Assembly (NCBI GenBank): GCA_049521795.1
Contig: JBEKOM010000013.1
Span: 1 to 43,527 of the forward strand
Source of the DNA: Candidatus Bathyarchaeia archaeon
GTDB lineage: Archaea > Thermoproteota > Bathyarchaeia > Bathyarchaeales > Bathycorpusculaceae
Length of the DNA: 43,527 nucleotides
Direction of reading: 5' to 3'
In this document: positions 1-43,301 of the stretch, piece by piece
How positions within the stretch are numbered: the stretch's first letter is position 1
Layout of the letters: the number at the start of each line of letters is the position of its first letter
Program-made: the position numbers and the translations under genes
Notes under the pieces: model-generated
Database searches by the model: none
Seen by the model: the letters and a program-made list of their open reading frames with translations, nothing else
Told to the model about the DNA's origin: nothing

Positions 1-428
1 TACAAGCTTACGGGCTGGATTTTCTGTGGGTCACCTTATCAGACGGGCAAGCCAGTTAACCCATTACCTGTTTCAATATTCCAAGCGTCTGAAACTTTGC
101 AGCCTGTTTTCACAGCAACGGCGCCTTAAACCTGTCAACCCCAGAATTCGCGGAAACAAACGCGCGCGGGACTCGCGAAGAACAACCTCCACCAAAGCAG
201 GGTCCTTCCCAAACCGTTCCTCCGAAATGAATAAGACGCTCGCACCTTAGGGAAACAAACAATTGCACAGAAATCTCACGTGATGGCCCTTCATCCACGG
301 ACAACGCTTGCCTTTTTCACGGTTTAGACATAACGCGCGCCCAAATATCAATAGGTCTCACAATACGGCAAAACCCTTTAGCTACCGCCACAAATGATAC
401 ATACCGACTACAACACAAGGGAAAAACC

Positions 429-548
429 ATGACCAGAACATGGAAGATCCTTCTGCTAACGCGCGCGCTGTTGCCGTCTTTCTCATGCGCATGGTATGCG
501 AAAGTTTACTGTGAATTGTTAGTGAAAGAAGAGTTGATGGAACGTTGA
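429..548 (+). pseudogene. Chimeric relic ORF: a gene start (MTRTWKILLLT) joined through a (GC)n tract at 460-468 to an unrelated 3' end (KVYCELLVKEELMER*)
   Basis: Manual translation. Purine-rich leader AAGGGAAAAACC before the ATG. The tail resembles GT4 C-termini. Confidence 0.3.
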
Positions 549-756
549 CTCAGCTAAGCTTATCTAGGGGGTGATCGACACTTCATCTCGTAGGGATCGA
601 GAAAGACGACAGTGGAGAGGGCAGGTTTTGTTCTTCAATAGCTTCTCCTTTCTTGTCTGCCCCCGCCAGGGGGAGACTGTCTAGTGCTAGCTGGAACACT
701 GTCGTACGGTTCTGATCACGCGCGCGCGCGCTCGTTTGGTCATTAGGTGATATGCT

Positions 757-1449
757 ATGTTGGCTCCGGCTGTTTCGGTCGTCATTCCTGCGTTCAATGA
801 AGGAAAGTCTATAGGCGACGTCATAAGCAAGGTGCGAACGGCGTTAGGATTGAGCTCGGTGCCTTATGAGATAGTTGTTGTTGATGATGGCTCTTCTGAC
901 GAGACAGGGATTATTGCCAGAAGCCAAAATGTGAGAGTTGTAAGCAATTGGAAGAATCGGGGTAAGGGAGTTGCTCTTAGGAGGGGTTTCGAGTGTGCTC
1001 TTGGCCACATAATAGTCACTATTGACGCTGATGGCTCTCATGATCCGAGAGACATAGGCAAATTGGTTCGTCCAATATTGGATGGTGCTGACGTGGTCTT
1101 GGGCTGCAGGTTCTTGGACGGACAAGGTCGAGAGACAACGACGAGGCTCAATGTTTTTGGGAATTCTATCATCAATTTCGCGATTTGGCTTGTCACAGGG
1201 AAAAAGGTTAGAGATAGTCAAACCGGTTTTCGAGCATTCAGAAGGAAAGTCCTTCAAGAGTTCGGAATTTCGGCAGAAGGGTTCCAGGTGGAGGCGGAGT
1301 TGACTGTGAAGATGCTCATGAACGGAAATGATGTTCGCGAAGTACCCATCACAATCAGAAAGCGCATGGATGGGGCTTCTCGACTGAATCCGCTACGTGA
1401 CGGGTTAAAGGACCTCTTAGTTATTATGAAAGCTGCATTTGAGGCTTAA
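757..1449 (+). CDS. GT2 glycosyltransferase, DPM1/polyprenol-phosphate glycosyltransferase-like
   Basis: Motifs VVIPAFNE, VVDDGSSD, GKGVAL, IDADGSH, DSQTGFRAF. AGGTGA RBS upstream. Confidence 0.93.
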   Translation: MLAPAVSVVIPAFNEGKSIGDVISKVRTALGLSSVPYEIVVVDDGSSDETGIIARSQNVRVVSNWKNRGKGVALRRGFECALGHIIVTIDADGSHDPRDIGKLVRPILDGADVVLGCRFLDGQGRETTTRLNVFGNSIINFAIWLVTGKKVRDSQTGFRAFRRKVLQEFGISAEGFQVEAELTVKMLMNGNDVREVPITIRKRMDGASRLNPLRDGLKDLLVIMKAAFEA

Positions 1450-1825
1450 CGCTGAGTCAGAAGGGATTTCACGAGACATTAGAACCCTAGAAACTATGAT
1501 GTTATACGCTAGCGCGCGCTCAGAGGGCTTGACACGCGACATAAGAATCTAGAAACAGTTGAGTGCGCTAGAATCTAGAATCTTAAGGATCAATGACTCA
1601 CTGAAACTCTGACTGCTGAACTCAAAAAAACTCACTGTTACATCTAGCGCGCGCTCGCACGTTAAGCTGTTACAGATGCAGGCGCCTTTGGACAGGCGCG
1701 CGCTAACCCCAGACGTAGAAGTATGAACAGGTCGCGCTAAGCAAGAATACGCACCCAGAAGCATACACGATAAAACTTGGTGCGCGCCAAAGACAAACTC
1801 AGACGAAGAGTTTGGTGTTCACAAA

Positions 1826-2818
1826 ATGGCAAAAGCAAGCGTGATAATAGTCACGCACAATCACAGGGAATACATCGGAACCTGCATTGGGTCAATCCAG
1901 CGGCAGAAATATCCTCACGAAATAATAATTGTCGACGGTTGCTCAAGTGACGGAACTGCAGAGCTCGTGAAGAGAGAATTCCCTAATTTGAAAGTGATAG
2001 AGTGCAGTCGGAATATAGGCTATGGCGCAGGAAATAACTTAGGGGTTGAATACGCGAAGGGGAGCCTAGTAGTCATACTTAATCCTGATGTAGTTGTCGA
2101 AAGCGGATGGCTTAGAGAACTTGTAAGCCCGCTAGAAAACAAGGATAGACTAATAACAACACCGAAGATACTGACCTATGACGGCTCAAAGATAAACACT
2201 TGTGGAAACATAAACCACTTCACAGGGTTAACATTCACCATGGGATTTGGCGAGAGTCCAAAGAGTCGTTCAGAGCCAGCATGCGTGAGTGGTGTCTCAG
2301 GCTGTTGTTTCGCTATGAGAAGAGAGGATTACTTCGGTTTTGACAGCACTTTTTTCCTGTACAATGATGATTCTGATTTTTCATGGAAAGCGCACCTTAA
2401 GGGTTTCACGATTTTGTATGTTCCATCATCTATAATAAGGCACGACTATGCCCTGAGAGTTTCGCCAACAAAAATGTACTATCTAGAGAGAAATAGGTAT
2501 CTTATGTTAAGAAAATATCTGCGTGAGGAGGATCTATTGCCCATACTGCCTTCCCTACTTATCGCAGAACTCTTAACTTTTGGCTATGCAATCAAGCGCG
2601 GACGCATGTGGCTCATCTGTAAAATAAACGCGGTGACAGACGGCCTACGGGCTCGAGTTGACAAAGTAAATGGAGACAAAAGGAAGCTAAACATGTCTCT
2701 GAGCGTTTCAATTCCTGTAGACCTTCTTACAGATAACAATTTCGAGAGACTACTCAAAATTCTTGCCAACAAGATGTTCAGATTGAATTTCAAAATAGTT
2801 AAACTGAAATATCTTTAG
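1826..2818 (+). CDS. GT2 glycosyltransferase (WbbL/rhamnosyltransferase-like)
   Basis: Motifs SVIIVTHN, IVDGCSSDGT, NIGYGAGNNLG, LNPD, FFLYNDDSD. The TAG stop runs directly into a (GC)n tract. Confidence 0.92.
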   Translation: MAKASVIIVTHNHREYIGTCIGSIQRQKYPHEIIIVDGCSSDGTAELVKREFPNLKVIECSRNIGYGAGNNLGVEYAKGSLVVILNPDVVVESGWLRELVSPLENKDRLITTPKILTYDGSKINTCGNINHFTGLTFTMGFGESPKSRSEPACVSGVSGCCFAMRREDYFGFDSTFFLYNDDSDFSWKAHLKGFTILYVPSSIIRHDYALRVSPTKMYYLERNRYLMLRKYLREEDLLPILPSLLIAELLTFGYAIKRGRMWLICKINAVTDGLRARVDKVNGDKRKLNMSLSVSIPVDLLTDNNFERLLKILANKMFRLNFKIVKLKYL

Positions 2819-2944
2819 CGCGCGCATAGCATTCCGCATGCCAAAATCCTAGCATATACTGATTTGTTCCGAATGCCACAGTACTTTATTCGTCGTCGAA
2901 GATCTGTGCGCGCGCGAACATGGCGGCATGAGGTTCGTGATAAA

Positions 2945-4093
2945 ATGAAAGTAACATTGATCCGTTCACGAGCGATAACTCCAAACATACGCAAAGTGGC
3001 TCGGGTCCTGTCAAAGAATGGGTATGATGTAAAACTCCTGTTGTGGGACAGGCAAGATACTCTAAAAAATGAAGAAGGCGCCAAATATAGAGTTTTCAGT
3101 TTCAATTTGAGAGCGCCTTATGATAAATTTAGCGTATTGTTCTACCTCCCACGCTGGTGGATGTTTGAGTTGCTTTTTCTCCTGAGAGACGATTCTGAAG
3201 TCATACATGCATGCGATCTAGACACACTCATGCCAGCAATTCTGGCAAAATGGGTTAGGCGAGCAAAAATCTCTTATACAATTTATGATCTCTACGCTGC
3301 CAACTTTCAGGGATGGATTGCTAGAAAGCTACTTGGATTCATTGAAAGACTTGCAATAAGATCCACGGACCTCCTAATCTTAGTGAATGAATTACAATAC
3401 ACAACGGTTCAGAGAGCCAAGATCAAGAATGCTGTTATCATCTACAATTCTCCACGAGATTGCTTTGATGGAACAAATGGACAACTACTCCGCCATAGAT
3501 CGAAAGAGCTAGATGAATTCAAAATATTCTACGCAGGTGCGATTCACGAATCACGTGGCCTGCGCTACATGATAAAAGCCATAAGAGACCTAGATGATGT
3601 TAGACTGACAATAGCCGGCATGGGACCTGCAAAAAGCCTCCTTGACGACCTCTTGCCCAGTATGAGGAAGAAGATTCATTATATTGGATATATCCCATAT
3701 AAAAAAGTCATTGAGAAAACAATGGAGGCGGATATGTTGTTCGCGTTCTATGATACTGCGTTCCCCTTCAGCAAATATGCTAGTCCCAACAAGTTGTTTG
3801 AGGCTATGATGTGCAGTAAACCGATAATTGTTAGCGATGGGGGCCTCATGGCTGACATTGTGAGAAAAGTGAACTGTGGGCTCGTTGTGCCTTATGGAGA
3901 TACTCAAGCGATTAGCGAGGCTATAGTAAGCCTGAAGATGAATGAAAAACTCCGGCAAGAGCTCGGCGAAAATGGAAGAAAAGCCTATGAAACCCAATAT
4001 AGTTGGGCCCTAATGGAAAAGAGGCTGATCGATAGTTATGGCAGACTTCGCTCGAAAGAACAAGTGCTGCAGCTGAACCGGGCGCGACAATAG
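2945..4093 (+). CDS. GT4 (GT-B) glycosyltransferase
   Basis: Motifs YAGAIHESRGL, SPNKLFEAM, ENGRKAYE. Start placed at ATG 2945 (MKVTLIRSR) because the upstream ORF extension crosses a (GC)n tract. Confidence 0.9.
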   Translation: MKVTLIRSRAITPNIRKVARVLSKNGYDVKLLLWDRQDTLKNEEGAKYRVFSFNLRAPYDKFSVLFYLPRWWMFELLFLLRDDSEVIHACDLDTLMPAILAKWVRRAKISYTIYDLYAANFQGWIARKLLGFIERLAIRSTDLLILVNELQYTTVQRAKIKNAVIIYNSPRDCFDGTNGQLLRHRSKELDEFKIFYAGAIHESRGLRYMIKAIRDLDDVRLTIAGMGPAKSLLDDLLPSMRKKIHYIGYIPYKKVIEKTMEADMLFAFYDTAFPFSKYASPNKLFEAMMCSKPIIVSDGGLMADIVRKVNCGLVVPYGDTQAISEAIVSLKMNEKLRQELGENGRKAYETQYSWALMEKRLIDSYGRLRSKEQVLQLNRARQ

Positions 4094-4254
4094 GGAATTT
4101 GGTACCCCAAATTATGATGAAGAAGTGTTGGCTTCTGCAATGCTTTCGTTATGCGAGAATTAGGCTCTCAGGGATGAAATTTCCCTGATTGTTCTAGATT
4201 ACGCACGATAACATAACTACTTCATGAAGAAGTGGAAACATGATCTGCTAGAAA

Positions 4255-4467
4255 GTGCTAGCAATAGCGGCTCTTTGTTCCATCGTGACAGCGCTCGTCT
4301 TCTTCTTAACGCAGCGCGCGCGCCTCTGGATACAAAGGCGTGTGCGCAAAAGTGTTGGAGCACGTGCGTGGTTTTTGCTTGAGAATATGCTACCTAATGC
4401 GTGCGCGTCTAGCACGCTTCATGAAAACGGCAAGAAAACATTTAGAACAAAATACACTTGGAAGTAA
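4255..4467 (+). pseudogene. Mosaic relic: hydrophobic signal-like segment, (GC)n tract at 4314-4323, then a GT4-like C-terminal fragment
   Basis: The tail LHENGKKTFRTKYTWK resembles LGENGRKAYETQYSWA of the upstream GT4. Confidence 0.35.
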
Positions 4468-4519
4468 TCGGAGATAGATTAAAGGCTTTTATGAATCAGT
4501 TTTGCAGAGGTCATGAAAA

Positions 4520-5642
4520 ATGAAGATTGGCAGAGTGGTCTCGATTGTGGGAGTGCGTCCGAATTTTGTTAAATTGGCAGCTTTGCATGAGAGTTTGTCT
4601 GAGAAAATTCAACATGTAATTGTCCATACTGGGCAGCATTACGATTATGAGCTTTCCAAAGCCTTTTTTGAATGTTTTGAACTCCCCTCCCCTGATTACA
4701 ATCTTGACGTAGGGTCGGGTAGTCACTGTTATCAATTGGGCGAGGTGATCGAGAGAGTTGAGCCGCTTTTGTTGAAAGAGAAACCCGATCTGGTCATAGT
4801 TTATGGCGACACCAATTCAACGTTCGCGGGAGCTTTGGCTGCAGCGCGACTACATTTCAAAGTCGCGCATGTTGAAGCTGGATACAGAATTTATGATAAA
4901 CATATGCCTGAAGAAGCAAACAGGGTTCTTACGGACCATGTGTCCGATGTACTGTTTGCGCCAACGAAAACAACTCTGCGTAATCTTAAAAGAGAATGTA
5001 CAAGGAAAAGTCCATTTAACTGGAGATGTTATGGTTGATGTTTTGCTAAATTACTTGCATATTGCAGAGGAAAAGTCAAATATTCTTGAGAAACTCGGGG
5101 TCTCTTCGAAAGATTACATCTTGCTGACGTTTCACAGGGAAAAAAATACAGAAGACATCCATACACTGAATAACATAGTCAGCGCTCTTCTGCGTCTTAG
5201 AGATTTCAAAATCGTTTTTCCGACACATCCAAGAACTGAAAAAGCTCTTAAAGAAACCGGCCTGTTCAAAAAAATAGAAAACTCGAAAAACATACTGGCC
5301 ACACCTCCATTGAATTATTTGGATTTCGTGAAGCTTGAAAACAATGCGATCAAGATAATGACTGATTCCGGCGGGGTGCAGAAGGAAGCTTACGTTTTGG
5401 GAATACCTTGTATTACTCTAAGGGATGCAACAGAATGCACTGAAACAGTTCAAGAAGGATGGAACTTGCTTGTGGCAGTCTGCCCTGAAAAGATTGTAAA
5501 TGCGGTACGCAATTTCGCTCCTGAGAAAAAATCGGCACGGAAAGCTTTGGGTGACGGAAAAGCTGCAATCAAAATAGCAAGTATACTCCTCGAAAATCTG
5601 GGGGGCATGCGGAAAATGACCACTTCGCGCGCACGAGCGTAG
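4520..5642 (+). pseudogene. wecB: UDP-N-acetylglucosamine 2-epimerase (non-hydrolysing), frameshifted near 4991-4997
   Basis: N-half (GVRPNFVK, HTGQHYD, GDTNST, HVEAG, MPEEANR) lies in ORF 4520..5038. C-half (TGDVMVD, TDSGGVQKEA) lies in ORF 4803..5642. The halves join as NLKRE/NVQGKV. Confidence 0.85.
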
Positions 5643-5718
5643 TCAAATGCAACAGAATTCTAAACGAAATCTGCAGGATAGTCCTATTGAGTTCACACAA
5701 AATAATTAGGGTGATAGT

Positions 5719-5952
5719 ATGAGAATCTGCTACCTATCTGATGGCATCAGCGTCCACGATTGGAGATTTCTGCGCTCACTGGCTAAAAGGAATCATGAGG
5801 TGCACCTGGTGTCTTTTTTCCCAGAGGCTCTCCCGTCTTCGCTCAAAGAAAATGCGCCCGTGCGCGCGGCTGTGGAGATTAAAGAGGAATTCGGAATCCC
5901 TAGCGCGCGCTATGAAAGTTTTATAGAGGGGAATATGCATGACAGATCGTAG
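5719..5952 (+). pseudogene. Miniaturised GT4 gene: N-terminus, middle piece and C-terminus joined in frame by two (GC)n tracts
   Basis: MRICYLSDGISVHDWRFLRSLAKRNHEVHLVSF matches the start of 17751..18839. EIKEEFGIP matches a GT4 mid-region. YESFIEG resembles a GT4 end. Confidence 0.75.
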
Positions 5953-7825
5953 CGCGCGCGAACTTGATAAACTAGTTGCATATGTTGGCCTTGTCTTCTC
6001 GTCTGGCCTTACTGTTTGGTCGGCAATCAAGGCAAGTCACTTTACATATTTCATAGCGGGGTTCCTTGTGTTCGTTGCTTGTTCTATTTACCTCTTCATA
6101 AGAAGAACCTTGTCCAGCTCTCAATTGTCTTCCATGTTCTACGCGGAATCGTCTCGTCGCTTCTACTTGTTCTCAAACCTTCTCTTTTTTGCTCTGTTCT
6201 TGTCTTCGATTCTATTCTGCCTCTTAAGACCCGAAGAATACAGTAGGCCTTTAGCCTATTTCATGACTATCGGGTTGATGGCTTCTGTTCTGGCTGTGGA
6301 GATCTTGTTTCTTCCTGCGGGAAAATCGCAGGAGCGTTTAGCATTATTGAAGATAATACTACTCAGCGTGAATATTGAACTGTCACAAGTTTTTGTGTTT
6401 CCTTCTATCGTCGGGATAGATCCGTGGTTACATCAGTCGTTCACTTTAGACATTCTGAAAAGCGGAGTCATACCAGGAGGATTCTCATATTCTGGGATTC
6501 CCTTAATGCATCTTTTGGTAGGCTCATTTTCATTGATTACAGGATTGGACTACAAGATTTCCGCATTTTTGTCAATATCTATTGTTCAAGCAGTTTCTGC
6601 TTCAACTTTGGTCTACCTCATTGGAAGCCGTGTTTTTAACAGCAGAATAGGCCTACTCGGCGCTCTTTTGTTAGGCACAGCAAACTACGAGCTTTCAATG
6701 GGCTATTGGGCCATCCCTAATACAATGGCAACAGTCTTTGCACTGGCCATAGTATTTCTGCTATTCAGAACCACTCAAGAAAAACCAAGCACCAACCTAT
6801 GTGTCACCTCTCTCATAATGCTCTTCAGTGGGGCTCTAATCCTGACTCATACTGTGACCTCAGTATTCATGCTTCTGCTTCTTGTTGTGTTTTGTGTAGG
6901 ATTTGAAGTTCGCAATCGCGTGCATCACGAAGGAAAGAACCCCGTACAACCTAGCCTTCCAATCTTTTTTGCTGCAGGAATGCTTGCATGGTGGACCTAC
7001 GTTTCCGGTCACTTGGGCCTACTAGCCACCTTTTTGGAAGAGGGATTCAGCTTGTCCTTCCGCTTAGGAAACGTGCCGAGTCAGGTAAGCCAATATTCAA
7101 ACAGAGTTCCGATATTGGAGCAACTATTCAACTCCGGGGGAAGCTATCTTTTCTTGACTATATCATTTATCGGATGCTTGTACATGTTTTCAAAGTATGG
7201 AACTTCTCGAGCCTTCGTAATTGCAGCATCGGGAGTCATTACTACAGCCATGGCTTTTTTTGCTCCAATTGCAAATGTGTGGATTATAACCCAAAGATGG
7301 TTCTATTTTTCTCAAATCCTCATGTCATTGCCACTTGCCTTCGGATTGATGATGCTTTGCTGGAAAATGAAGAGCAGACTGGTCAAATCTATCCTGCTCG
7401 CATCCCTCGTCTTTCTACTAACGTTCCTTATGATTCTAAGTCCTACTGCCAACCTGGACAATCCAACTTTCTCACCAAACACGCAGATTCGATATGCTTT
7501 CACAACTTCTGAACAGCAAGCATTAGAAACCGTCGCAGGTATGGGAAGCAAGAAGATAGCCGTCGACGATTACTACAGTCTTCTAGACTATCCTCTCTAT
7601 CCTACTGAGAGTATAGGAGAACGGATCTACAACGGAAGTTTTACCATGTACAATGGAGAACCAATCCTGATCAGACAGGAAATTGTAAACCATCCTTTTC
7701 AATCAATTGCCGGATCAACCGCGTACAAATTGGATTACGATCCTCGAGAAACACTGACGACTCAGATTTTCTCTAGAATATATGACAGCAATTCTGTCAG
7801 TGGCTTCATCCGCTTTTCGCACTAA
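5939..7825 (+). CDS. Multi-pass membrane protein, probable GT-C fold glycosyltransferase or glycan polymerase
   Basis: Many hydrophobic helices, a GIDPWLH loop after the N-terminal helices, an LILTH motif, and location in a glycan cluster. Confidence 0.65.
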   Translation: MTDRSARELDKLVAYVGLVFSSGLTVWSAIKASHFTYFIAGFLVFVACSIYLFIRRTLSSSQLSSMFYAESSRRFYLFSNLLFFALFLSSILFCLLRPEEYSRPLAYFMTIGLMASVLAVEILFLPAGKSQERLALLKIILLSVNIELSQVFVFPSIVGIDPWLHQSFTLDILKSGVIPGGFSYSGIPLMHLLVGSFSLITGLDYKISAFLSISIVQAVSASTLVYLIGSRVFNSRIGLLGALLLGTANYELSMGYWAIPNTMATVFALAIVFLLFRTTQEKPSTNLCVTSLIMLFSGALILTHTVTSVFMLLLLVVFCVGFEVRNRVHHEGKNPVQPSLPIFFAAGMLAWWTYVSGHLGLLATFLEEGFSLSFRLGNVPSQVSQYSNRVPILEQLFNSGGSYLFLTISFIGCLYMFSKYGTSRAFVIAASGVITTAMAFFAPIANVWIITQRWFYFSQILMSLPLAFGLMMLCWKMKSRLVKSILLASLVFLLTFLMILSPTANLDNPTFSPNTQIRYAFTTSEQQALETVAGMGSKKIAVDDYYSLLDYPLYPTESIGERIYNGSFTMYNGEPILIRQEIVNHPFQSIAGSTAYKLDYDPRETLTTQIFSRIYDSNSVSGFIRFSH

Positions 7826-8118: not shown

Positions 8119-9225
8119 ATGAGAATCACAATTGTTCTGGGGGCGCGTCCTCAAATAGTCAAGTCTTCACTTTTCATTCATTTGGCAAGCAAGGACAAGA
8201 GGATAATCTTGCAAATAGTCCACACTGGCCAGCACTATGATTATGAGATGACCAAAGTCTTTTTTGAAGGGCTCGATTTGCCGGAACCCAATTCAAATCT
8301 GGGTGTAGGCAGTGGTACTCATGCACAACAAACAGCGAAAATGATGTTGATGTTGGAGGAAATGTGGAAAAAACAAAGACCAGACGTGGTTTTGGTGCCA
8401 GGCGATACTAATTCCACTCTTGCGGGGGCTCTAACGGCGGCAAAGCTTACGATACCTGTGGCCCATATGGAAGCTGGGGCCAGGAGCTATGACATGGAAA
8501 TGCCTGAGGAGATAAACAGACGTCTAACGGACCATTGCTCTGCTCAACTCTTTACGCCGACCAACAACTGCACTAGAAATCTGCTCAGAGAAGGAATCCC
8601 CAAAAAGACCATCTGCGAAGCAGGAGATACTATGTACGATGTCCTTTTGCAGCAACTGCCGAAGGCTGAGAGAACAACAATCCTAGGCGATCTTGACCTG
8701 AAAGCGAAGAAATATGCACTTTTGACGACGCACAGACCCGAAAATGTGGATGCCCCTCTAAAGCTTCGAAACATTGTTGAGGCAATGGTGGAAATGGCGC
8801 CTTTGAAGATAGTCTTTCCGGTTCATCCAAGAACTCAGAAGATGCTGGAGACAATCAAGCTCTTCGACAGAATTGCAAAGCAGAAGCACATCAAAATCAT
8901 CAAACCAACAGGTTACCATGAGACGCTTAAACTGATACAAAATGCCTCGGTTGTTGTAACAGACTCTGGTGGAATGCAGAAGGAGGCTTTCTGGCTAAAG
9001 ACACCGTGCGTTACTATTCGCAAGAACACGGAATGGACAGAGACAATAGAATTAGGAGTAAATACTCTCGTTGGAAACGACGTCCAAGAAATTGTGAGAA
9101 CCACAAAAAAAATGATCGAAGAGGGAGACCGGATTATAGAAAAAATCGCAAAGACTCGAAATCCGTTTGGAGATGGTAGGGCCTCACGTAGGATACTCGA
9201 AGCTCTCAAGAAGCTGCAAAAGTGA
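8119..9225 (+). CDS. wecB: UDP-N-acetylglucosamine 2-epimerase (non-hydrolysing), intact
   Basis: Motifs GARPQIVK, HTGQHYD, GDTNST, HMEAGARS, MPEEINR, TDSGGMQKEA, PFGDG. Confidence 0.96.
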   Translation: MRITIVLGARPQIVKSSLFIHLASKDKRIILQIVHTGQHYDYEMTKVFFEGLDLPEPNSNLGVGSGTHAQQTAKMMLMLEEMWKKQRPDVVLVPGDTNSTLAGALTAAKLTIPVAHMEAGARSYDMEMPEEINRRLTDHCSAQLFTPTNNCTRNLLREGIPKKTICEAGDTMYDVLLQQLPKAERTTILGDLDLKAKKYALLTTHRPENVDAPLKLRNIVEAMVEMAPLKIVFPVHPRTQKMLETIKLFDRIAKQKHIKIIKPTGYHETLKLIQNASVVVTDSGGMQKEAFWLKTPCVTIRKNTEWTETIELGVNTLVGNDVQEIVRTTKKMIEEGDRIIEKIAKTRNPFGDGRASRRILEALKKLQK

Positions 9226-9338
9226 TAGCTCCGAGTCCATCAAAAATCATTAGCAAATCGCGCGCGTTAGACCGAATAATCTCATAATAGACAAGTTCCT
9301 AAGAAATTCTTTGCATCAGGACATTCGCAGCGCGCGCG

Positions 9339-9619
9339 AAGTACGAACAAATTTATGAAGCTTTGACGTCGCAAAGCTGAAAACCCTATCTAGTAATTGA
9401 CCTAAAATATTATCCCAAAAATGATGTGGATCAATCGCTTTAAGAAAGTGGCTATGAGAATTCTTCAAAACAGTGAGCAATAGAGGTTAGCTCGCGCGAA
9501 AAAGAGGTGTCCACATTGTTGGAAATAAGCAGAAAAAGCTACATGTTTAGGGTAAAGGACCATGCGAACGTCGATGGAACGAATTTCGGACGGTTTTCTG
9601 TGGACAAGTTCAAAAAGGA
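9339..9619 (+). repeat. Diverged duplicate of 12623..~12841 fused to ~13726..13792, bounded by (GC)n tracts
   Basis: Direct alignment: AAGTACGAACAAATTTATGAAGC...GTGTCCACATTGTTGGAAATAAGCAG matches 12623 onward, then GATGGAACGAATTTCGGACGGTTTTCTGT matches the AsnB-like gene. Confidence 0.9.
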
Positions 9620-9707
9620 GCGCGCGCTTCACACTTGAAGTTCACACACGGCGGGCTCCGCGAACTGTCATGCGGGTTCGTTCTTAGACTAAGCAACGCT
9701 GCGATGG

Positions 9708-12611: not shown

Positions 12612-12789
12612 GCGCGCGCGGTAAGTACGAACAAATTTATGAAGCTTTGACGTCGCAAAGCTGAAAACCCTGTCTGGTAATTGACCTAAATATTCTCTCA
12701 AAAATGATGTGGATCAATCGCTTTAAGAAAGTGGCTATGAGAATTCTTCAAAACAGTGAGCACCAGAGGTTAGCGCGCGCGAAAAAGAG

Positions 12790-15423: not shown

Positions 15424-15684
15424 TAGCGCGCATGCGTGTTCCTAAAATGGTCAAAAATGGTTTTAATTCCGCTCTGCCCGTTTATCCTGTGCTCGAGAAA
15501 GACAAAATACCCAGAGAAATCAATAGCAGGCACGAAGCCCAAAGCCGTCCCTAGATCATGAAGGCGGATAAAAACCATTTTAGGCCAATTTCGGAACAAG
15601 CATGCACGCTACTCGAAACCTGCAGAAGTGCCAAAAACGAATTGAAACCATTTTTCACCATTTTCGGAACAGGCATGCACGCTA
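15424..15684. mobile_element. Non-coding MITE-like element with 45-bp imperfect terminal inverted repeats and a second internal right end finishing at 15611
   Basis: 15424-15468 matches the reverse complement of 15640-15684 at 40/45 positions. Both ends terminate in TA. Confidence 0.75.
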
Positions 15685-15782
15685 CGTCGTGATTACCATT
15701 CCTCTGTCTAATGCGAGCGTAGTCGATTCACACTGAGGCGTGTGAATATGCGTGAGAATCTGATTATTGGGCTCTGGTTCCT

Positions 15783-16853: not shown

Positions 16854-16871
16854 CAATGGAAGCGCGCGCGC

Positions 16872-17091: not shown

Positions 17092-17101
17092 GCGCGCGCG
17101 C

Positions 17102-17713
17102 TTGAGTCACGTCCAAGCTTAGGAGGTGAATCCTAACGGGACAAGATGAACACGAGACCCTTGAAACCCTCTTCAGAAACGTAGACTTAAGTTTTGCTAG
17201 AGCAGCGTTGCTCAGATGCTTCCACACGGTCGAACCCGGTAGGCCTCTCAGAAACCCATTGGGACTTTTCAGAACATTCATCGTCATGAGAATGAAAAGC
17301 GTCCGCAGCCTCAGAGAAATGACAAGACTACTCGACACGGACCTGCGGCTCAGAAAACTATGCCTCATCAAACCAGCCGAAGCAGGCTATCCCAGAAGCG
17401 TTCTCAGCAGGTTCATCCGCAAGGTCGGAGAAGACAAACTCACCAGAATAATCGAGGAGAAAGTAGTTAAACTGTTGAAACAAACGCCGCAAAAGAGGTT
17501 GATGCCGTACTAGGTACCTCGTTCATAAAGGCCTGGAGCACACGCCATCCCGCGCGCGGTACAGCCTAGTCGTCAACAAGGTCAGAGCTTTGAGAAATGT
17601 CGCTTCCTACGCGCTCTACAGCCTGCTGTGTTTAGTTCTGAACAGAGAAGCGGCAGAAAACCTCAGAAGACCCGACAAAGCCGTCTCACCGACCTACTTC
17701 AACACATAATAAA
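17102..17713 (+). mobile_element. Decayed DDE transposase gene (IS4/IS5/IS1182-like), frameshifted with its core deleted at a (GC)n tract
   Basis: N-terminal PGRP...SLREM..LL.TD.RLR.LC...P.SVLSRF, then DAVLGTSFIKAWS, tract at 17551-17558, then C-terminal NKVRALRNV...PTYFNT*. Confidence 0.75.
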
Positions 17714-17750
17714 GCGCGCGCGCTACGATATTGTTGCTGGTTGACCTTTG

Positions 17751-24998: not shown

Positions 24999-25041
24999 CT
25001 GCCCGCGCGGCTCATATTTTTTCTAGAATTTTCTTCACGAC

Positions 25042-25104
25042 TAGCGCGCATGCGTGTTCCCAAATTCGTTTGTGAGGTGGCCTGTGCTTCCGGCTTGGCT
25101 GACG
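25042..25104 (+). repeat. Solo left end of the MITE-like family
   Basis: TAGCGCGCATGCGTGTTCC is identical to 15424. The continuation resembles 39943 onward. Confidence 0.65.
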
Positions 25105-32218: not shown

Positions 32219-32259
32219 AACGAGAGGTAATTCCTCCATCAGAGTTGTCGGTGTCTCAG

Positions 32260-33246
32260 ATGACGAACAGTGCTAAGTACCGGCGGATTCTTGTGACGGG
32301 CGGAGCAGGTTTCATAGGAAGCCACGTCGTGGACAAGTTGATGGAAGACGGTTATGTAGTGACCGTGATAGACAACCTTCACACTGGAAGCCTCACAAAT
32401 ATCGATCGACACACGGACAACCCAAACCTAAGCTTCATAAACGGCGACATTCGAGACATCGATCTGGTCAAAAAAGCCCTGAAAGACGTCGATGTCGTTT
32501 TTCATGAGGCCGCTCTAGCGAGCGTCTCTCTCTCTGTGAAGGATCCGATTTTCACCGACCAGATAAACGTTGAAGGAACACTGGATCTTCTGAAAGCCTC
32601 ATGTGACCAAAACGTCAAGCGTTTCATATACGCCTCCTCAGCAGCGGTCTACGGGAAGACAAAATCCTCCTGCAAGAAAGAGGACGACCACCTGAGTCCA
32701 GCTTCGCCGTACGGAGTTTCAAAGCTGGCAGCTGAAAACTACGTTCAAGTCTTCCAAAGACTGTACGGTATCGAAACAGTCTGCCTGAGATACTTCAACG
32801 TCTACGGCCCAAGACAAAAAGTCGACGTACACGGTAGCTACGGAGGTGTCATATCGATATTCATAAACAGAATCCTGAAGAACATGCCTCCGATCATAAA
32901 CGGAGACGGAGAACAAACCAGAGACTTCGTCTACATCCACGACGTAGTCAAAGCCAACATGCTGGCCATGAACACCGAAAAGGGCATAGGCGAAGCCTTT
33001 AACATAGCAACAGGCAAAGGCGCAAGCATAAACAAAGTTGCAGAAACCCTAAAGCAAATTATGAACAAAAAAGAGTTGAAAGACATCCACACCGAACCCA
33101 GACCCACCGACATAAAACACGGATACGCAGACATAAGCAAGGCAAGAGAAATCCTAGGTTATGAACCGCAATTCTCCATAGAAGAAGGGCTAGCTGATCT
33201 TGTCCACTGGTACACTAAGAAGAATTCGAAATACGAGCAAAAATGA
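32260..33246 (+). CDS. NAD-dependent NDP-sugar 4-epimerase (extended SDR)
   Basis: Motifs [42 protein letters not shown]. Confidence 0.95.
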   Translation: MTNSAKYRRILVTGGAGFIGSHVVDKLMEDGYVVTVIDNLHTGSLTNIDRHTDNPNLSFINGDIRDIDLVKKALKDVDVVFHEAALASVSLSVKDPIFTDQINVEGTLDLLKASCDQNVKRFIYASSAAVYGKTKSSCKKEDDHLSPASPYGVSKLAAENYVQVFQRLYGIETVCLRYFNVYGPRQKVDVHGSYGGVISIFINRILKNMPPIINGDGEQTRDFVYIHDVVKANMLAMNTEKGIGEAFNIATGKGASINKVAETLKQIMNKKELKDIHTEPRPTDIKHGYADISKAREILGYEPQFSIEEGLADLVHWYTKKNSKYEQK

Positions 33247-33424
33247 ATGAATCAACACAACCAAAATCAACGTTGTCAGGTTTTCCGCAAGAAATAGTAT
33301 GCGCATGGAAACAAAGGCTAAAAGCGGCCGTTAGCTTTTTGGACAAGAAGGAAAAAAGCTACGAACACAAGAAAACAGGTCTTCTGAGCCTTTGGAAACC
33401 CTGAATCCCTAATCGGGTGAAGAA

Positions 33425-35518
33425 ATGAGAGCCCAGCACTTACATCTCAATATGCGCACTAAGAGCAATCTAGTCTTAGGCTTCAAAATTGCAGTTGTCG
33501 CTGTCGCAACTCTAGCGATCTTCTATCAAGACCTGGTGATATTGGCAAACGACGCCTTGCAGAGCGACTTCATGAGCTACATCTTCGCTGTACCACTCCT
33601 ATTCGTCTACCTGTTGTATCGCAAAAGAAAAATGCTGACGGCAGCAATCGCTGAGAGGCAAGATGAACAAGGAACAACGCGATACTTGCCGGCGATTGCT
33701 GGAATTCTTCTTTCGGCCACAGCGATATTGCTCTACTGGCATGGCTCGTACACGTTTACTCCGTTAGAATACCACATGATGACCTTGCCCCTTCTTGCAG
33801 CCGGCTTAATCCTCGTCTTTTTCAACGCAAATACACTTAGACAGTCTATCTTTGCAATAGCTTTCCTCTTCCTGTTGACACCGCCTCCTTTGGAAACCCT
33901 CTACAGTTGGGGCTCCACGCTGTCGGTAGTAAGCTCAGAAATCTCCTATAACCTTGTGAGGCTGTTTCAGATACCAGCTACTCTCACAAGCGATTCCGGC
34001 ACTCCAGTGATACAGATCACTAGGGCCACCGGCGCAACAATCCCCTTTCCCGTTGACGTTGCATGTTCGGGAATCTACAGTCTGATCGGATTCCTAGTGT
34101 TCGCAGTGTTCACTGCCTACATGATAAGAGACAAACTCTGGAAGAAGCTCTTCCTTTTTGTTATCGGGTTCTCTCTGATTTACGTAATTAACATAGCAAG
34201 GATAACCACGATTCTCATGATAGGCTACGAACTCGGCGAACAAACAGCACTTCAAGTCTTTCACCTATTGGGAGGATGGATCCTGATATTCATAGGAACA
34301 TTTGTTCTGCTAATATTCGCAGAGAGAATACTGCACGCTCAGATCTTCTCCAAATCAACCGAAAAATGCTCAGGATGCAACCCGAAACCTGAGAAAGATC
34401 AAGACTTTTGTCTTTCATGTGGAAGAATCCTGAAGCCAGTCCGCATCAATTTTCGCAGACTTGACACTGTAAGAATAGTTGCAGTAGCTGCTGTCGTGAT
34501 TCTGCTCTTGTCAATTCAAGTGCCTGTATTCGCATTAACGAACGGGCCAGCACAAATAATGATTCAAACCCCAACGGGAGAGCAGGGAAACAAACAGCTA
34601 CTGCCACAGATACCCGGTTACGAACCGACATTCTTGTATCGTGACACAGACTTCGAAAACTTATCAGGGCAGGAAGCTTCGCTCGTGTATGCTTACGAGT
34701 CGTTAGATAAGACAAAGAAACCCGTCTACGTGGCGATCGGAATAGCGTCCACAACAGGTCCCCTTCACCGTTGGGAATATTGCCTAAATGGACCCGATAG
34801 ACCGGTCTACGGCACCAGTTTAGATTTGAAAGATACGCAGATTTTGGATAATCCACCTATCATCGCAAGGTACTTCGCTTTTCAATGGGTGAGCACAAAT
34901 CAAACCGAAGTGGTCCTGTACTGGTACGAAAGCGCGATTTTCAAAGCAAATGACACAGCCCAACAGAAGCAGGTAGAAATAAGCCTGATCACGTACCCAG
35001 ACAGCCCACAGAACCTGACACGAATAGAGGAGTTGCTGCCATTCGCCACGGCAATAGCCCAATACTGGGAACCCATCAAAACATGGTCACAGGTAGCTCT
35101 AATACTGTCCCAACAAAGCTTAACGCTCGCGGCAGCAACTGGCATACCAATTCCAGTTATCGCAGTTCTGTATTTACTGAGGAAGAGAAAAGAAAGAAAA
35201 GCAAACACAAAGGCCTATCTAAAACTCGCAAAGCCGACTAGAGACATCATCGACGCCGTCTCAGAGACCGAGAAAACAGAGTCGCCCACGCTAGCTGCAA
35301 TTGCTGCCGCATTCAGAAACAGAATGGGCGAGTCCGTAGAAGACGAAAAATTGCTTGAAAGACTCACAGAAGCGGAGAAAGTGGGCGTAATAAAGAACGA
35401 GATTGCAAACGTACAGGACCAGCCAACACGAATATGGAAAACTCAAATGACATCAAGATTTCACTTGGCCAGCGTAACTCGTTTCATCAGACTTCGCTTC
35501 TCAAAACCCACACACTAA
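33425..35518 (+). CDS. Exosortase/archaeosortase-family transpeptidase with a zinc ribbon and an EpsI-like domain
   Basis: Multi-TM protein with VACSG, NIARI and FH...GW (Cys/Arg/His triad), CSGC...CLSC, and a later LHRWEYCL...VLYWY domain. Confidence 0.85.
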   Translation: MRAQHLHLNMRTKSNLVLGFKIAVVAVATLAIFYQDLVILANDALQSDFMSYIFAVPLLFVYLLYRKRKMLTAAIAERQDEQGTTRYLPAIAGILLSATAILLYWHGSYTFTPLEYHMMTLPLLAAGLILVFFNANTLRQSIFAIAFLFLLTPPPLETLYSWGSTLSVVSSEISYNLVRLFQIPATLTSDSGTPVIQITRATGATIPFPVDVACSGIYSLIGFLVFAVFTAYMIRDKLWKKLFLFVIGFSLIYVINIARITTILMIGYELGEQTALQVFHLLGGWILIFIGTFVLLIFAERILHAQIFSKSTEKCSGCNPKPEKDQDFCLSCGRILKPVRINFRRLDTVRIVAVAAVVILLLSIQVPVFALTNGPAQIMIQTPTGEQGNKQLLPQIPGYEPTFLYRDTDFENLSGQEASLVYAYESLDKTKKPVYVAIGIASTTGPLHRWEYCLNGPDRPVYGTSLDLKDTQILDNPPIIARYFAFQWVSTNQTEVVLYWYESAIFKANDTAQQKQVEISLITYPDSPQNLTRIEELLPFATAIAQYWEPIKTWSQVALILSQQSLTLAAATGIPIPVIAVLYLLRKRKERKANTKAYLKLAKPTRDIIDAVSETEKTESPTLAAIAAAFRNRMGESVEDEKLLERLTEAEKVGVIKNEIANVQDQPTRIWKTQMTSRFHLASVTRFIRLRFSKPTH

Positions 35519-36744: not shown

Positions 36745-36748
36745 CTCA

Positions 36749-39246: not shown

Positions 39247-39461
39247 AACGAGGCATATCTACTCTAGGCGTATAAAGATTTTTCGATAAATCGCCACACT
39301 GCACCGGCCCCCACTGAACGAAACCAAAACAATCAATGTCGAACAAACCCCGTCAAAGCTCGAGCGCGCGCTTCTGGAGTGAACCTGACTTGAGGCTACC
39401 ATGCGTTTCCGCTTTCAAATTTATTAGTCGGATCCACATCTGTAATACTTGAGTGATTTTA

Positions 39462-39680
39462 ATGGCGAGGGTTGCATATTTAGATGAGGAAGACCGAAAG
39501 CTCCTCTCCGAAACCAAGCAGAAGCTTGACGAAGCCACAAAGGTAATGGGCGAGCTCTTGGAGACCATTGAGATTTTAAGCGATCCAGACATGATGAAAG
39601 ACATCCGCAAAGGCCTCGAAGACATCAAGACTGGAAGAGTCAAGGAACTGCGCAGTCTTCTAAAGGAAGAAGCCCATTGA
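39462..39680 (+). CDS. Putative antitoxin for the RelE toxin
   Basis: LLETIEILSDPDMMKDIRKGLEDIKTGRV motif. Overlaps the toxin start by 4 nt. Confidence 0.8.
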   Translation: MARVAYLDEEDRKLLSETKQKLDEATKVMGELLETIEILSDPDMMKDIRKGLEDIKTGRVKELRSLLKEEAH

Positions 39681-39931
39681 AATACACGATTCTCTTATCA
39701 AGACAAGCCGAGAAATTCTATAAAAAGCTACAAGAAAAGGTCAAAACCCAAGTTCGAGAAAGTTTAATCGGTTTAGAGATTCAATCCTACGCAGGAAAAC
39801 GACTTCACGGAGACTTGAAAGAAAACTATAGCCTACGAGTTGGGAAACTCAGAATAATCTACACCATTTCAGAGAAAGACAAGACCATCTACATTATAGC
39901 CATAGGCCCAAGAAAAACGATTTACCAATAA
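39677..39931 (+). CDS. relE: RelE/ParE family toxin
   Basis: KRLHGDLKENYSLRVGKLRIIY...IGPRKTIY. Confidence 0.9.
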   Translation: MKYTILLSRQAEKFYKKLQEKVKTQVRESLIGLEIQSYAGKRLHGDLKENYSLRVGKLRIIYTISEKDKTIYIIAIGPRKTIYQ

Positions 39932-40134
39932 TATCGCGCGCATAGCGCGCATGCTTGTTCCGAAATTAGTTTGCGAAGTATCTGATGCTTCTGGAGTGAA
40001 CCTGACTTAGAGAAAAAAGAGAGGATTCCAAGAATCCCAAGAGCCGCAATTTAATGCGGCTACCCTCGCGGTGTAATTTAGGATTGAAGATAGGTTCATA
40101 TAGATGTCGCGAACATTGCATTGCTGGCGGTTTT

Positions 40135-40913: not shown

Positions 40914-41153
40914 ATTTTTTCACTAAGCCGAAGCATGAGTCTTGAGTCTTAATAAACATTATTGTCTACATTATCAACACAAATACACATCGCAAAATGT
41001 ACACACAAGCAAAAACAACCTCAAAACCCTCAATAACGTTCAACACACGACAAGACACATCCCAACTAGTTATCCCAGCTTCATAAAGCTTTAACGACGC
41101 ATAACACGACTCAAACGTTCGACCTCCAAAAAAGGCCGCTCGTGGTCAACCCT

Positions 41154-41348
41154 ATGCACAACAAAGTAATCAGGCTACTTTTCCTACCAATCGCAATACT
41201 CATCTGGATAATCGGATGGACCATGCTCTGGGCAGGCACGCGTAAAGAACAAGAGACCCAACGAACCCAAGCCGAAACCGCCACAGAAGACGAGTCCATA
41301 ACCATAATACCCATGATACCCGAAGAACAAGAACAATGTGAAGGCTAA
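41154..41348 (+). CDS. Small single-TM protein
   Basis: LLFLPIAILIWIIGWTMLWAG helix followed by an acidic tail. Confidence 0.6.
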   Translation: MHNKVIRLLFLPIAILIWIIGWTMLWAGTRKEQETQRTQAETATEDESITIIPMIPEEQEQCEG

Positions 41349-41471
41349 CCCGCACGCGTGCCCACTGCACCTACAGATAAACTTTTCAGCACAGGCAAAC
41401 AACCAAACCATTAAACCGTTAAATAGGTTCCAGTTCCCTTCTTGAACAGATCCTGAAAGGATAGAGAAACC

Positions 41472-43088
41472 ATGGAAAAAGCGCTTCAGATGGGCAAGAC
41501 CTCGGCCGTTGGAAGCTTCCAGCTGCTCATAGGCGTGGCAGCATCCACTATAATCATGGCGGCAGGATCCATAATCCTGGGCAGGCTTCTCACGACCGAC
41601 GAGTACGGGCTTTACGGCATCGTGCTCATCCCAGCGACCCTGATAAACCTGTTCAGAGACTGGGGCATAAACAGCGCCATGACCAAGTACATCGCAAGCC
41701 TCAGAGCTTCACAAAGAGACGAAGAAATACACGACTTCATCGCTGCCGGGCTCATCTTCGAAGTTGCATCCGGTCTCGCCCTCTCATTCCTCTCACTCGC
41801 CCTAGCAAGCTTCATCGCCACAACAGTCTTTAACAGGCCTGAATCCGCAGGCTTCATAGCGATAATGTCGGTTTCGATAATCTCCGGATCGCTGCTCGCA
41901 GCCTCCCAATCCGGCTTCGTAGGCTTCGAAAGAATGGAACTCAACAGCTTCACACTCGTCTGCCAAGCCGTCGTGAAAACCGCAGTGGGCCCAGTGCTAG
42001 TCTTCTTAGGATACAGCGTCCTGGGGGCAATCATCGGCTGCACCTTGGGCGTCGTAGCCGCCGGAACCATCGGCCTAGCAACCTTCTACCTCGTCCTATT
42101 CAGGCCTCTTAGAAAAAAGCGAACAATAAACTCTAACATAACCAAAACGCTCAGAACAATGCTAAACTACGGAGTGCCGCTCTCAATAGGCTCCATCCTA
42201 GGAGGCATCCTAGCGCAGATTTACGCTTTCATGATAATTCCTCTAACCAGCAACACGATGTACGGCAATTATGTCGTGGCAATCAACTTCTCCGTCCTTC
42301 TAACCTTCTTCACCACCCCAATATCGACAGTGCTGTTCCCAGCGTTTGCAAAACTCGACGGTCAAAACGAGCATGAACTCCTAAAAAACGTCTTCACATC
42401 CTCAGTCAAATACACGTCCATACTGCTGATACCAGCAACGATGGCAATGATGACTCTGTCAGGCCCAATGGTCGGCACACTGTACGGAGAAAAATACGTT
42501 TACGGACCCTTCTTCCTAACCATATACGTCATAGGCAACCTGTTCGCCGTCTTCGGAAGCCTAAGCTCAGGCGGCCTCCTATACGGCCTAGGAAAAACGA
42601 GAATACTCATGATACAGAGCATAATAACACTGGCCATCGGCCTTCCACTGGGCATCGTCCTTATCCCAATGTTCGGAATAACAGGCCTCATCATCGCAAG
42701 CGTCGTCGCAGGATTACCAAGCATGTTCTGGGTCCTCTACTGGATATGGAAACACTACAAAGCCAAAGCGGACTTCGCGTCATCAGCAAAGATCTTTGCA
42801 GCATCGGCGATTGCCGCCGTCCTTGCATACTTGCCCACGGCCTTCCTTAACACACCCAACTGGACAAAACTCATAATCGGCCTAATCATCTTCCTAGCCG
42901 CCTACATCTTCGGTGCACCCATGATCGGCGCAGTGAGCCTGACAGACATAAACAACCTCAGAACTATGTTCTCCAGCATGAGCATCATATCAAAGATAAT
43001 CAACATCCCACTAAAAGCAGCAGAAAAAGCCGCCCAGACGAGAGCGCGCCACACGACGCCAGAAGAACCAGAACACCGCGAAGCCTAA
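41472..43088 (+). CDS. Oligosaccharide flippase (Wzx/MOP family)
   Basis: About 14 TM helices, RLL..DEYGLY, DWGINSAMTKYIA, VLFPAFAKL. Confidence 0.92.
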   Translation: MEKALQMGKTSAVGSFQLLIGVAASTIIMAAGSIILGRLLTTDEYGLYGIVLIPATLINLFRDWGINSAMTKYIASLRASQRDEEIHDFIAAGLIFEVASGLALSFLSLALASFIATTVFNRPESAGFIAIMSVSIISGSLLAASQSGFVGFERMELNSFTLVCQAVVKTAVGPVLVFLGYSVLGAIIGCTLGVVAAGTIGLATFYLVLFRPLRKKRTINSNITKTLRTMLNYGVPLSIGSILGGILAQIYAFMIIPLTSNTMYGNYVVAINFSVLLTFFTTPISTVLFPAFAKLDGQNEHELLKNVFTSSVKYTSILLIPATMAMMTLSGPMVGTLYGEKYVYGPFFLTIYVIGNLFAVFGSLSSGGLLYGLGKTRILMIQSIITLAIGLPLGIVLIPMFGITGLIIASVVAGLPSMFWVLYWIWKHYKAKADFASSAKIFAASAIAAVLAYLPTAFLNTPNWTKLIIGLIIFLAAYIFGAPMIGAVSLTDINNLRTMFSSMSIISKIINIPLKAAEKAAQTRARHTTPEEPEHREA

Positions 43089-43301
43089 CTCATAGCGCGC
43101 GCTGACCAGTTCATTCTCTCGGCAGCCTTTCAGCCCGAACACTTGAAAAAAGGGCGGCCGCCCGACAGCTAAGGGACAGCATGGAACGATTTTTCCCGAT
43201 TCTTCCAACAAGCCGCTCCTGGACAAATCCTAAATACTATCCTAGCTCACAAACCTTCTCAGAACATCGCCTGTATCGGCCAGGATGCGAGATGCACCAA
43301 A

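Follow-up and report, generated by a model that had tools for sequence, protein, structure and literature searches.

Short extragenic GC palindromes of Bathyarchaeia are enriched at rearrangement joints and may be break-and-rejoin joints and hot spots

Short runs in which G and C strictly alternate are scattered along a 43,527-nucleotide contig of Candidatus Bathyarchaeia archaeon (JBEKOM010000013.1, assembly GCA_049521795.1). A previous inspection of the letters alone, which we refer to as the sequence-only reading, had taken these (GC)n tracts for pervasive scars that mark rearrangement junctions and had proposed a DNA cut-and-rejoin system as their source. Are the tracts really found at joints, are they made there, and what could make them? 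The window analyzed here is the entire 43.5-kb contig, which belongs to a 2.44-Mb genome of 69 contigs with a GC content of 0.486 (G000); G001 is a single-contig congener that is ~88-93% identical to G000 in the syntenic core. We found that the tracts lie within a few bases of homology-block ends, insertion/deletion (indel) joints, gene-fragment copies and truncated copies of insertion sequences (ISs), that they are purged from coding DNA, and that they are no better conserved than their flanks. The explanation that we favor, with a confidence that stops somewhat short of even, is that the tract is both a break-and-rejoin joint and a hot spot, and that it is written or retained when the joint forms.

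An exact count gave 57 alternating G/C runs of at least 6 nt between positions 161 and 43102 of the window, 39 of which were at least 8 nt long, and these are the very numbers that the sequence-only reading had reached by eye. The runs were 6 nt (7 runs), 7 nt (11), 8 nt (16), 9 nt (13), 10 nt (9) and 13 nt (1) long, the perfect TAGCGCGCGCTA noted earlier at 5901-5912 was present, and the tract set (161..43102; like all tracts below, given without strand) amounted to 1.31 runs per kb, versus ~0.3-0.6 per kb on other large contigs. When the window was simulated with an order-3 Markov chain trained on the window itself, which already absorbs part of the tract signal, runs of at least 8 nt had a mean of 5.5 and a maximum of 11 over 200 simulations, versus the 39 observed. 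Genome-wide, GCGCGCGC was the commonest 8-mer, with 417 sites or 834 words on both strands, whereas ~59 words were expected from base composition and 72 from an order-3 Markov model, that is, an 11.6-fold excess over the latter; after GCGCGCGC, the most over-represented words were its A/T-flanked extensions. The sequence-only reading had proposed this count against a Markov background, and the strong excess agrees with it, as does its estimate of fewer than one chance 8-mer in the window, since the genome expectation scaled to the window is well under one. Many small G000 contigs (C21, C22, C30, C32, C33, C38, C41, C44 and others) have a GC content of 0.60-0.65 and are possibly mis-binned; these contribute some chance GC runs to the genome totals.

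The form of the tracts was also specific. Runs of 6, 7, 8, 9, 10, 11, 12 and 13 nt numbered 543, 198, 219, 107, 56, 3, 3 and 1 in G000, and in G000, G001 and G068, a genome of another family, the length distribution had a second mode at 8 and then 10 nt, with a ceiling near 10-12 nt. The phase was GCGC rather than CGCG in 191 of the 219 G000 8-mers. Over all aligned tracts, the flank consensus was A at −1 (59%) and T at −2 (36%), and positions further out were at background. Because there is no conservation beyond −2, the unit is A(GC)4T or TA(GC)4TA rather than the end of some longer repeat, and the absence of a T-run excludes an intrinsic terminator. Paired half-sites of the form AGCGC-N(k)-GCGCT were in excess only at k=0 (92), k=2 (24) and k=4 (7), 2.2 being expected, and the spacer was GC in 19/24 cases at k=2 and GCGC in 3/7 at k=4. 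TA(GC)4-5TA is a free-standing, fast-turning-over extragenic palindrome. In the window, 48 of the 57 runs were outside the listed open reading frames (ORFs) even though ORFs cover 76.5% of its length, and several of the nine in-ORF runs were located in doubtful N-terminal extensions, which bears out the earlier impression that tracts are nearly absent from enzyme cores. On the genome-wide coding and non-coding maps, which are crude longest-ORF calls made without a gene finder, 287/389 G000 tracts of at least 8 nt were outside ORFs covering 86% of the genome. Tract density in G000 was 1.28 per kb in convergent spacers, 0.88 in tandem spacers and 0.59 in divergent spacers, and single spacers often contained several tracts.

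To ask whether tracts coincide with breakpoints, we turned to the core contigs, because the window had no synteny in the five congeners searched and comparison at orthologous positions had to be made elsewhere. Alignment of 1.2 Mb of the 2.35-Mb G001 genome, a portion containing 243 tracts, with G000 yielded 224 best homology blocks, hence 448 ends. Forty-nine of these ends were at most 5 nt from a G001 tract (32 inside the tract and 17 at 1-5 nt), whereas 7.5 were expected when the tracts were placed at random non-coding positions, and the excess was absent beyond 10 nt. When tracts of either genome were counted, 78/448 ends were at most 5 nt away. Among 75 clean large indels, the short allele carried a run of at least 6 nt at the joint in 16 cases and one of at least 8 nt in 10; same-length random non-coding windows gave means of 3.9 and 1.9, respectively, and 0/400 simulations reached the observed values. 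Two indels adjoined a tract that was kept in both alleles. In the first 400 kb, both 150-nt flanks were collinear in G000 for only 7/65 non-ORF G001 tracts, versus 269/600 random non-coding positions. The sequence-only reading had called for such a comparison with sister genomes, and tracts are indeed found at block ends and indel joints well beyond chance. Its wording that pervasive scars mark the junctions nevertheless went too far: joints are enriched in tracts, but only 78/448 block ends and 16/75 indel joints have one.

Alignments spanned 24 of the 243 tracts, and 6 of these 24 were identical. Sequence identity was 81.3% inside tracts versus 87.3% in their flanks, and orthologous tracts differed by small indels and point changes. 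Such differences could arise by replication slippage at dinucleotide microsatellites, or in Z-DNA-prone sequence tolerated nowhere but in non-coding DNA, and tract lengths do move in 2-nt steps. By contrast, the separate mode at 8 nt, the hard stop near 10-12 nt with no long tail, the strong GCGC phase with its A/T flanks, and the fact that most new tracts arise with structural change and not in conserved spacers are not expected of slippage, and we regard this explanation as extremely unlikely. The claim that the tract is created at the junction is supported in part. It agrees with the tract-capped derived joints described next, but tracts with conserved flanks are inherited, and they decay through point changes.

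The direction of change could be read at a few of the joints. At C2:78185, G000 has an 11-nt tract in place of ~700-765 bp, and the long allele was present in 6/6 other congeners (G001, G002, G004, G005, G008 and G009). At C2:102796, GCGCCCGC stands in G000 in place of ~700 bp that are common to G001 and G002, and the 5′ end of a gene appears to have been removed. The decayed IS copy of the window bears the internal deletion that the sequence-only reading had placed at 17551: relative to the intact G004 copy, 427 bp are absent, and CGCGCGCG (17551..17558) lies exactly at the joint. This tract is absent from the intact G004 and G007 copies, and the G007 copy has no tract at either breakpoint of the deletion. 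The only other G000 fragment of this IS, at C4:135658, is truncated and capped by TAGCGCGCGCT. At several derived joints, the long allele had no GCGC at the site. Where longer forms in other genomes were comparable, tracts are thus located on derived, shortened alleles. The region C8:67286-69550 of G000 was rearranged differently in every congener.

To account for these results, we propose that the sealing of a double-strand break would lay down, or keep, a short self-complementary GC block at the joint. Because any GC block pairs with any other, in either orientation, the block could then act as a universal GC microhomology and as a target for later events, which would include deletions starting there, exchange of the DNA beyond, copying of bounded fragments and transposon insertion. 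Several points weigh against this proposal. The central writing step is one that we infer, and no writing enzyme was found. There was no tract at 59/75 indel joints and 370/448 block ends. The long allele also had a tract at one end in 7/16 tract-bearing indels, and both genomes carried a tract at 17/49 block ends, so the association may partly reflect fragility or targeting of older tracts. A BLAST block may also end at a tract merely because a weak intergenic alignment is interrupted where one of the two genomes has gained a tract. The direction was resolved at two deletion joints and two IS copies, with outgroup backing for the two G000 deletions only; the long alleles compared come from sister genomes and not from the direct ancestor; and at C2:78185 the long allele of G002 has a tract of its own 45 nt inside the breakpoint.

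Tracts also mark where four alignments between paralogues of the window start or stop. A 230-bp gene-fragment copy (9330-9559) that is 93.5% identical to 12612-12842 starts at the tract at 9330..9338, and the tract at 9620..9627 caps the end of a fragment copy in which 9553-9619 corresponds to 13726-13792. At the tract at 12612..12620, two paralogue alignments meet, one pairing 12483-12612 with 9739-9868 and the other pairing 12612-12842 with 9330-9559. The perfect 12-bp palindrome TAGCGCGCGCTA (5901..5912) forms the left boundary of a 225-bp segment that is copied at 16864-17092; the left boundary of the copy is the tract at 16862..16871, and its end is a (GC)5 run (17092..17101) that is also the left tip of the decayed IS copy. 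The sequence-only reading had noticed that truncated copies end at tracts and that the longer paralogues are free of them. In agreement with this, the alignments stop at 9620, 12612 and 17092, and the longer paralogues continue without a tract at 13792, 9868 and 6127. By contrast, the position 5903, which it had listed as an internal deletion, is actually the start of the duplicated segment.

Several of these tracts were also crossed by contigs from public sequencing runs. Logan contigs were available from four public runs labelled peat metagenome (X1-X4), one of which may be the source sample. Contigs of X1-X3 crossed the tracts at 9620 (X1 and X3), 16862 (X1, X2 and X3) and 17092 without differences, the tract at 12612 was crossed by an X1 contig only, and no contig among those listed crossed the tract at 17551. 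Since tracts are shared by independent contigs and independent genomes, an assembly artefact can be ruled out.

Could mobile elements have produced the tracts? According to the sequence-only reading, the window has no candidate enzyme, and this statement has to be amended, because the window carries the decayed gene of an IS5-like transposase (17102-17710) as well as inverted-repeat ends with GCGCGC tips at three positions (15426, 25044 and 39945). The IS5/IS1182-like copy (17102..17710, + strand), which encodes a DDE_Tnp_1 + DUF772 transposase and carries the 427-bp deletion, shares 79-81% identity with the intact G004 copy (307 aa). The transposase matched the Pfam models DDE_Tnp_1 and DUF772 and stayed below the NCBIfam cut-offs (best scores 84.5 and 139 bits vs 270 for IS1182; 71 and 103 vs 140 for IS5_4), and it is distantly IS5/IS1182-like. 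The right tip of the copy is a (GC)5 run (17714..17723), where G004 has GCAGCTGCGCGCT. A miniature inverted-repeat transposable element (MITE)-like element at 15424..15685 (no strand assigned) has ~46-nt inverted ends starting TAGCGCGCATGCGTGTTCC and many copies in congeners. A solo inverted-repeat end of the same family is located at 25041..25096 (+ strand; TAGCGCGCATGCGTGTTCCCAAATTC), and one of a second IS family at 39943..39995 (+ strand), which is separated from the tract 39935-39941 by just the 3 nt ATA. The inverted ends shared by intact copies of two related IS families and by dozens of 160-210-bp MITEs open with (T)AGCGCGC. Searching loosely with an 11-mer for inverted-repeat ends returned 704 mostly random matches and was dropped. 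In the four peat-labelled runs, the summed contig depth was 110-6400 over 15321-15621 and 250-430 over 17127-17427, versus ~2-25 elsewhere, indicating that the MITE and the IS are multi-copy in these communities. For the MITE-like element at 15424..15685, the depth summed over contigs was 400-6400.

Orthologous sites showed how these elements and the tracts are related. At C10:33811, G000 has a MITE where G001 has a solo tract, C-GCGC-GCGC-TAAT, which equals the filled site minus the element; the outgroup G002 is without an entire 3.6-kb segment. This segment (G000 C10 ~30362-33950) lies between a tRNA 3′ end and the MITE and is at least partly present in G001, and in G002 the tRNA directly abuts its right flank; judged from this arrangement, it resembles an island integrated at a tRNA and delimited by a tract or MITE. 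Different MITEs occupy two sites shared by G000 and G001, and at a further site G000 has a decayed tract where G002 has a MITE. In all, nine orthologous MITE sites comprised one solo tract, two other MITEs, four shared elements and two sites with other DNA, with no plain AGCGCT. The GCGCGC-tipped IS5-like elements and MITEs of the genus insert at tract sites. Sorted by conserved flanks, 21 G001 MITEs had none (7), one (8) or both (6), and the inverted-repeat pattern was found in 10/11 genomes of the genus and in 0/20 neighbouring genomes.

These observations suggest another origin for the tracts, namely that they are transposon footprints. An IS5-like element or MITE would duplicate 4 bp of its target on inserting at GCGC, (GC)4 would be left behind when both copies survive excision, and the joints would result from transposon-mediated deletions followed by excision. 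Excision of Tc1/mariner and P elements leaves short palindromic footprints at former insertion sites, and the tracts resemble these in being short palindromic remnants that the IS5-like/MITE tips of the genus match. The element tips, (T)A-GCGC-GC..., and solo tracts are alike in their A/T and TA flanks, the mode at 8 nt and the ceiling at 12 nt correspond to two (GC)3 tips, and MITEs and tracts are similarly distributed by flank conservation. The solo tract of G001 at C10:33811 and the confinement of the inverted-repeat pattern to the genus among the genomes just given also fit a footprint. However, there was no clean AGCGCT empty site among the nine orthologous MITE sites, and at several derived joints the long allele is without GCGC. 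We know of no footprints so uniform and numerous in prokaryotes.

A survey across the class bore on this point. We counted A(GC)4T, without normalisation for GC content and with the reversed word as a control, in 251 Bathyarchaeia genomes of at least 85% completeness. The word was hyper-abundant in scattered lineages of four other families, with 16-131 copies versus 0-5 for the reversed word. Unrelated rich lineages were G073, G068, G086 and G078 (f32), G099, G105 and G139 (f26), and G208 (f36), and in these lineages the word was as abundant as in the window's genus. In the 0.4 Mb analyzed of the 1.98-Mb G068 genome (GC 39%), the tracts repeated the G000 pattern in their size classes, in the TA flanks, in the bias toward extragenic DNA and in the order of spacer densities; 8-mers and 10-mers were equally common, and 6-mers were ~14 times rarer than 4-mers. 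No GCGC-tipped repeat family was detected in these 400 kb, nor any repeat family beside the tracts, so that this part of G068 has the full tract signature without the elements. Inverted-repeat counts ran opposite in trend to tract counts in the ten genomes tested: the tract-rich genomes G068, G139, G086 and G073 had 0, 0, 1 and 4 matches, whereas G176 and G126, in which A(GC)4T is hardly or not at all in excess, had 39 and 29. A similar discord was seen inside the genus, where G009, G008 and G005 had no more than 2, 2 and 0 inverted-repeat matches beside their 359, 254 and 128 sites of GCGCGCGC. Related transposases were found in 31 genomes, many of them tract-poor, and the tips are GCGCGC there too; these were sought as IS-B-like transposases at E <= 1e-40, a threshold that G000 itself does not pass because it has fragments only. 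In one tract-poor genome (G023:C52; L173/L261), a related transposase was accompanied by homologous inverted ends tipped CGTGC and not GCGCGC.

The IS5-like/MITE family does not co-vary with tracts across the class, which is at variance with the Tc1/mariner and P element precedent, and it was set aside as the general writer because element counts do not track tracts. The survey instead argues that the family uses tracts and does not write them, and we consider a footprint origin unlikely. It also overturned an explanation that we had favored earlier, in which transposon excision was followed by Ku/LigD sealing. Returning to the break-and-rejoin explanation, we infer that a tract-writing activity is patchily distributed in Bathyarchaeia and is not encoded in the window. 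A stronger version would be that an undescribed, horizontally patchy activity in several Bathyarchaeia lineages seals breaks with a fixed-size, self-complementary 'staple', TA(GC)4-5TA, a universal, orientation-free recombination joint by which, in non-coding DNA, gene fragments would be shuffled, islands exchanged and transposons targeted; we put this forward tentatively and consider it unlikely.

Is a known end-joining pathway a candidate for this activity? Mycobacterial Ku/LigD end-joining yields fill-in outcomes, and its scars resemble the tracts in that fill-in of an overhang can duplicate 4 nt. G000 has a complete end-joining operon (C5:41155-44209; locus L232 4155-7209), composed of a LigD primase-polymerase domain, Ku, and an ATP-dependent ligase fused to a 3′-phosphoesterase domain (LigD-PolDom/Ku/ligase-PE), and Ku was detected in 8/11 genomes of the genus. 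A restriction-type staggered cut at (R)GCGC(Y) or AGCGCT, followed by fill-in and religation, would duplicate GCGC and destroy the site, and Ku/LigD could fill and seal the ends. The GCGC phase and the mostly A...T flanks are as such a cut would leave them, and by inspection A(GC)4T no longer contains RGCGCY. Polymerases of non-homologous end joining are described as annealing and extending 3′ overhangs in trans (PMC3898472), which also counts in favor of a cut followed by fill-in.

Against this origin, Ku was present in only 4 of the 15 genomes with at least 25 copies of A(GC)4T, a number obtained by comparing two tables side by side, versus 71/251 genomes overall, which is the class background. 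Ku is therefore not enriched among tract-rich genomes, which rules out Ku/LigD as a required factor; in the class sample, it is neither necessary nor sufficient for tract richness. Nor is the presumed target avoided, because the observed/expected ratios in G000 were 0.90 for AGCGCT, 1.13 for GGCGCC and 0.98 for AGCGCC, and non-coding DNA had 71 AGCGCT sites versus 69 of A(GC)4T. The RE_HaeII model had no match in 11 genomes, though it likewise matched none of 14 control genomes. The equal numbers of 8-mers and 10-mers in G068, together with its scarce 6-mers, are unlike a simple +4 rule, and several long alleles lack GCGC at the joint. We therefore judge a staggered cut with fill-in to be very improbable. 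Following the correlation with enzyme genes that the sequence-only reading had suggested, we saw that over the 251 genomes neither Ku nor the IS5-like family tracks the tracts.

Alternatively, the tract could be a functional or repair-biased iterated palindrome, such as a protein-binding site or an RNA 3′-end element, that is kept by selection or by biased mismatch repair, its link with junctions being secondary. The closest known kinds are the highly iterated palindrome HIP1 of cyanobacteria and the repetitive extragenic palindromic (REP) sequences of bacteria. Like HIP1, which is an 8-bp GC-rich palindrome, lineage-specific and the most over-represented genome word, the tract is palindromic, the commonest 8-mer and patchy across lineages. 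Reports on HIP1 describe a link with orphan methyltransferases and evolutionary conservation of the palindrome (PMC4390886, PMC5861425). The present tracts differ in being extragenic, unconserved, and located at indel and synteny joints, and in having no link with a C5-methylase or Vsr: the C5-methylase PF00145 was found in 2/11 genus genomes (G000 and G002) and not in the single-contig G001 with its 464 sites, and Vsr had no match above cut-off in the 31 relatives searched. The combination of m5C methylation and very-short-patch repair was demoted on these grounds. REPs are targets of ISs and are found at the borders of variable regions. They are 20-40-nt stem-loops of conserved sequence, with a single-copy gene for a REP-associated tyrosine transposase (RAYT). 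REPs, with bacterial interspersed mosaic elements (BIMEs) and REP doublets forming hairpins (REPINs), resemble the tracts in being extragenic, lineage-variable and present in hundreds of copies. The unit found here, however, is 8-12 nt and loopless, with no flank conservation beyond −2, and Y1_Tnp does not track the tracts. The Y1/RAYT transposase PF01797 was present in 2/5 tract-rich genomes (not in G001 or G068) and in 2/5 tract-poor ones, and on this equal occurrence in a smaller sample RAYT was set aside as well.

The extragenic location, the highest density in convergent spacers of G000 with the same order in G068, and the occurrence of multiple tracts per spacer are consistent with an iterated palindrome. 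The lower identity inside tracts than in their flanks, the 24/243 tracts in alignable context, the PF00145, Vsr and RAYT results, and the lack of a T-run or other flank signal are against it, and it leaves the tract-capped derived deletions unexplained. We consider it unlikely, to the same degree as a footprint origin, and the defining features of HIP1 and REP that could be tested here were absent from the tracts.

A literature search, judged from titles and abstract openings, found no description of the motif. If a dedicated activity does write the GC block, this would be a new way of DNA repair and reshuffling in prokaryotes, and the block would be a readable mark of each event, by which rearrangements could be counted and dated in uncultured archaea. 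Even as a mere hot spot or transposon target, the tract would stand out, since we know of no smaller extragenic palindrome that is hyper-abundant and of no other such palindrome in archaea, and it would explain the mosaics of gene fragments in variable islands such as the glycosylation cluster of the window. In practice, tract density together with the A...T flank provides a simple lineage marker, and assemblies break at repeats that adjoin tracts.

The gene content of the window is that of a surface-glycan island. It includes glycosyltransferases of GT2 and GT4, two UDP-GlcNAc 2-epimerases, one of them broken, two DegT aminotransferases, an asparagine-synthase-like gene, a radical-SAM gene, methyltransferases, an NAD-epimerase, an exosortase-family gene and a flippase. 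Copy 1 of the UDP-GlcNAc 2-epimerase (4520-5642) is split into the overlapping frames 4520-5038 and 4803-5642, and copy 2 (8119-9225) is intact. An Rfam scan and a tRNA scan of the window gave no matches. A toxin-antitoxin region at 39390-39941 consists of a small ORF and a ParE-family toxin gene (PF05016), in ORFs 39462-39680 and 39677-39931. This insert is bracketed by a 21-nt direct repeat (39371-39391 and 39988-40008); the tract at 39364..39371 is located directly before the first repeat copy, and the tract at 39935..39941 forms the end of the 552-bp block, with CGCGCGCGC at the same end in G001. The block (39390-39941) is 99% identical to G001:C1:22850-23401 and to G002:C32:9333-9884, and because the genomes are ~90% alike elsewhere, it looks recently exchanged.

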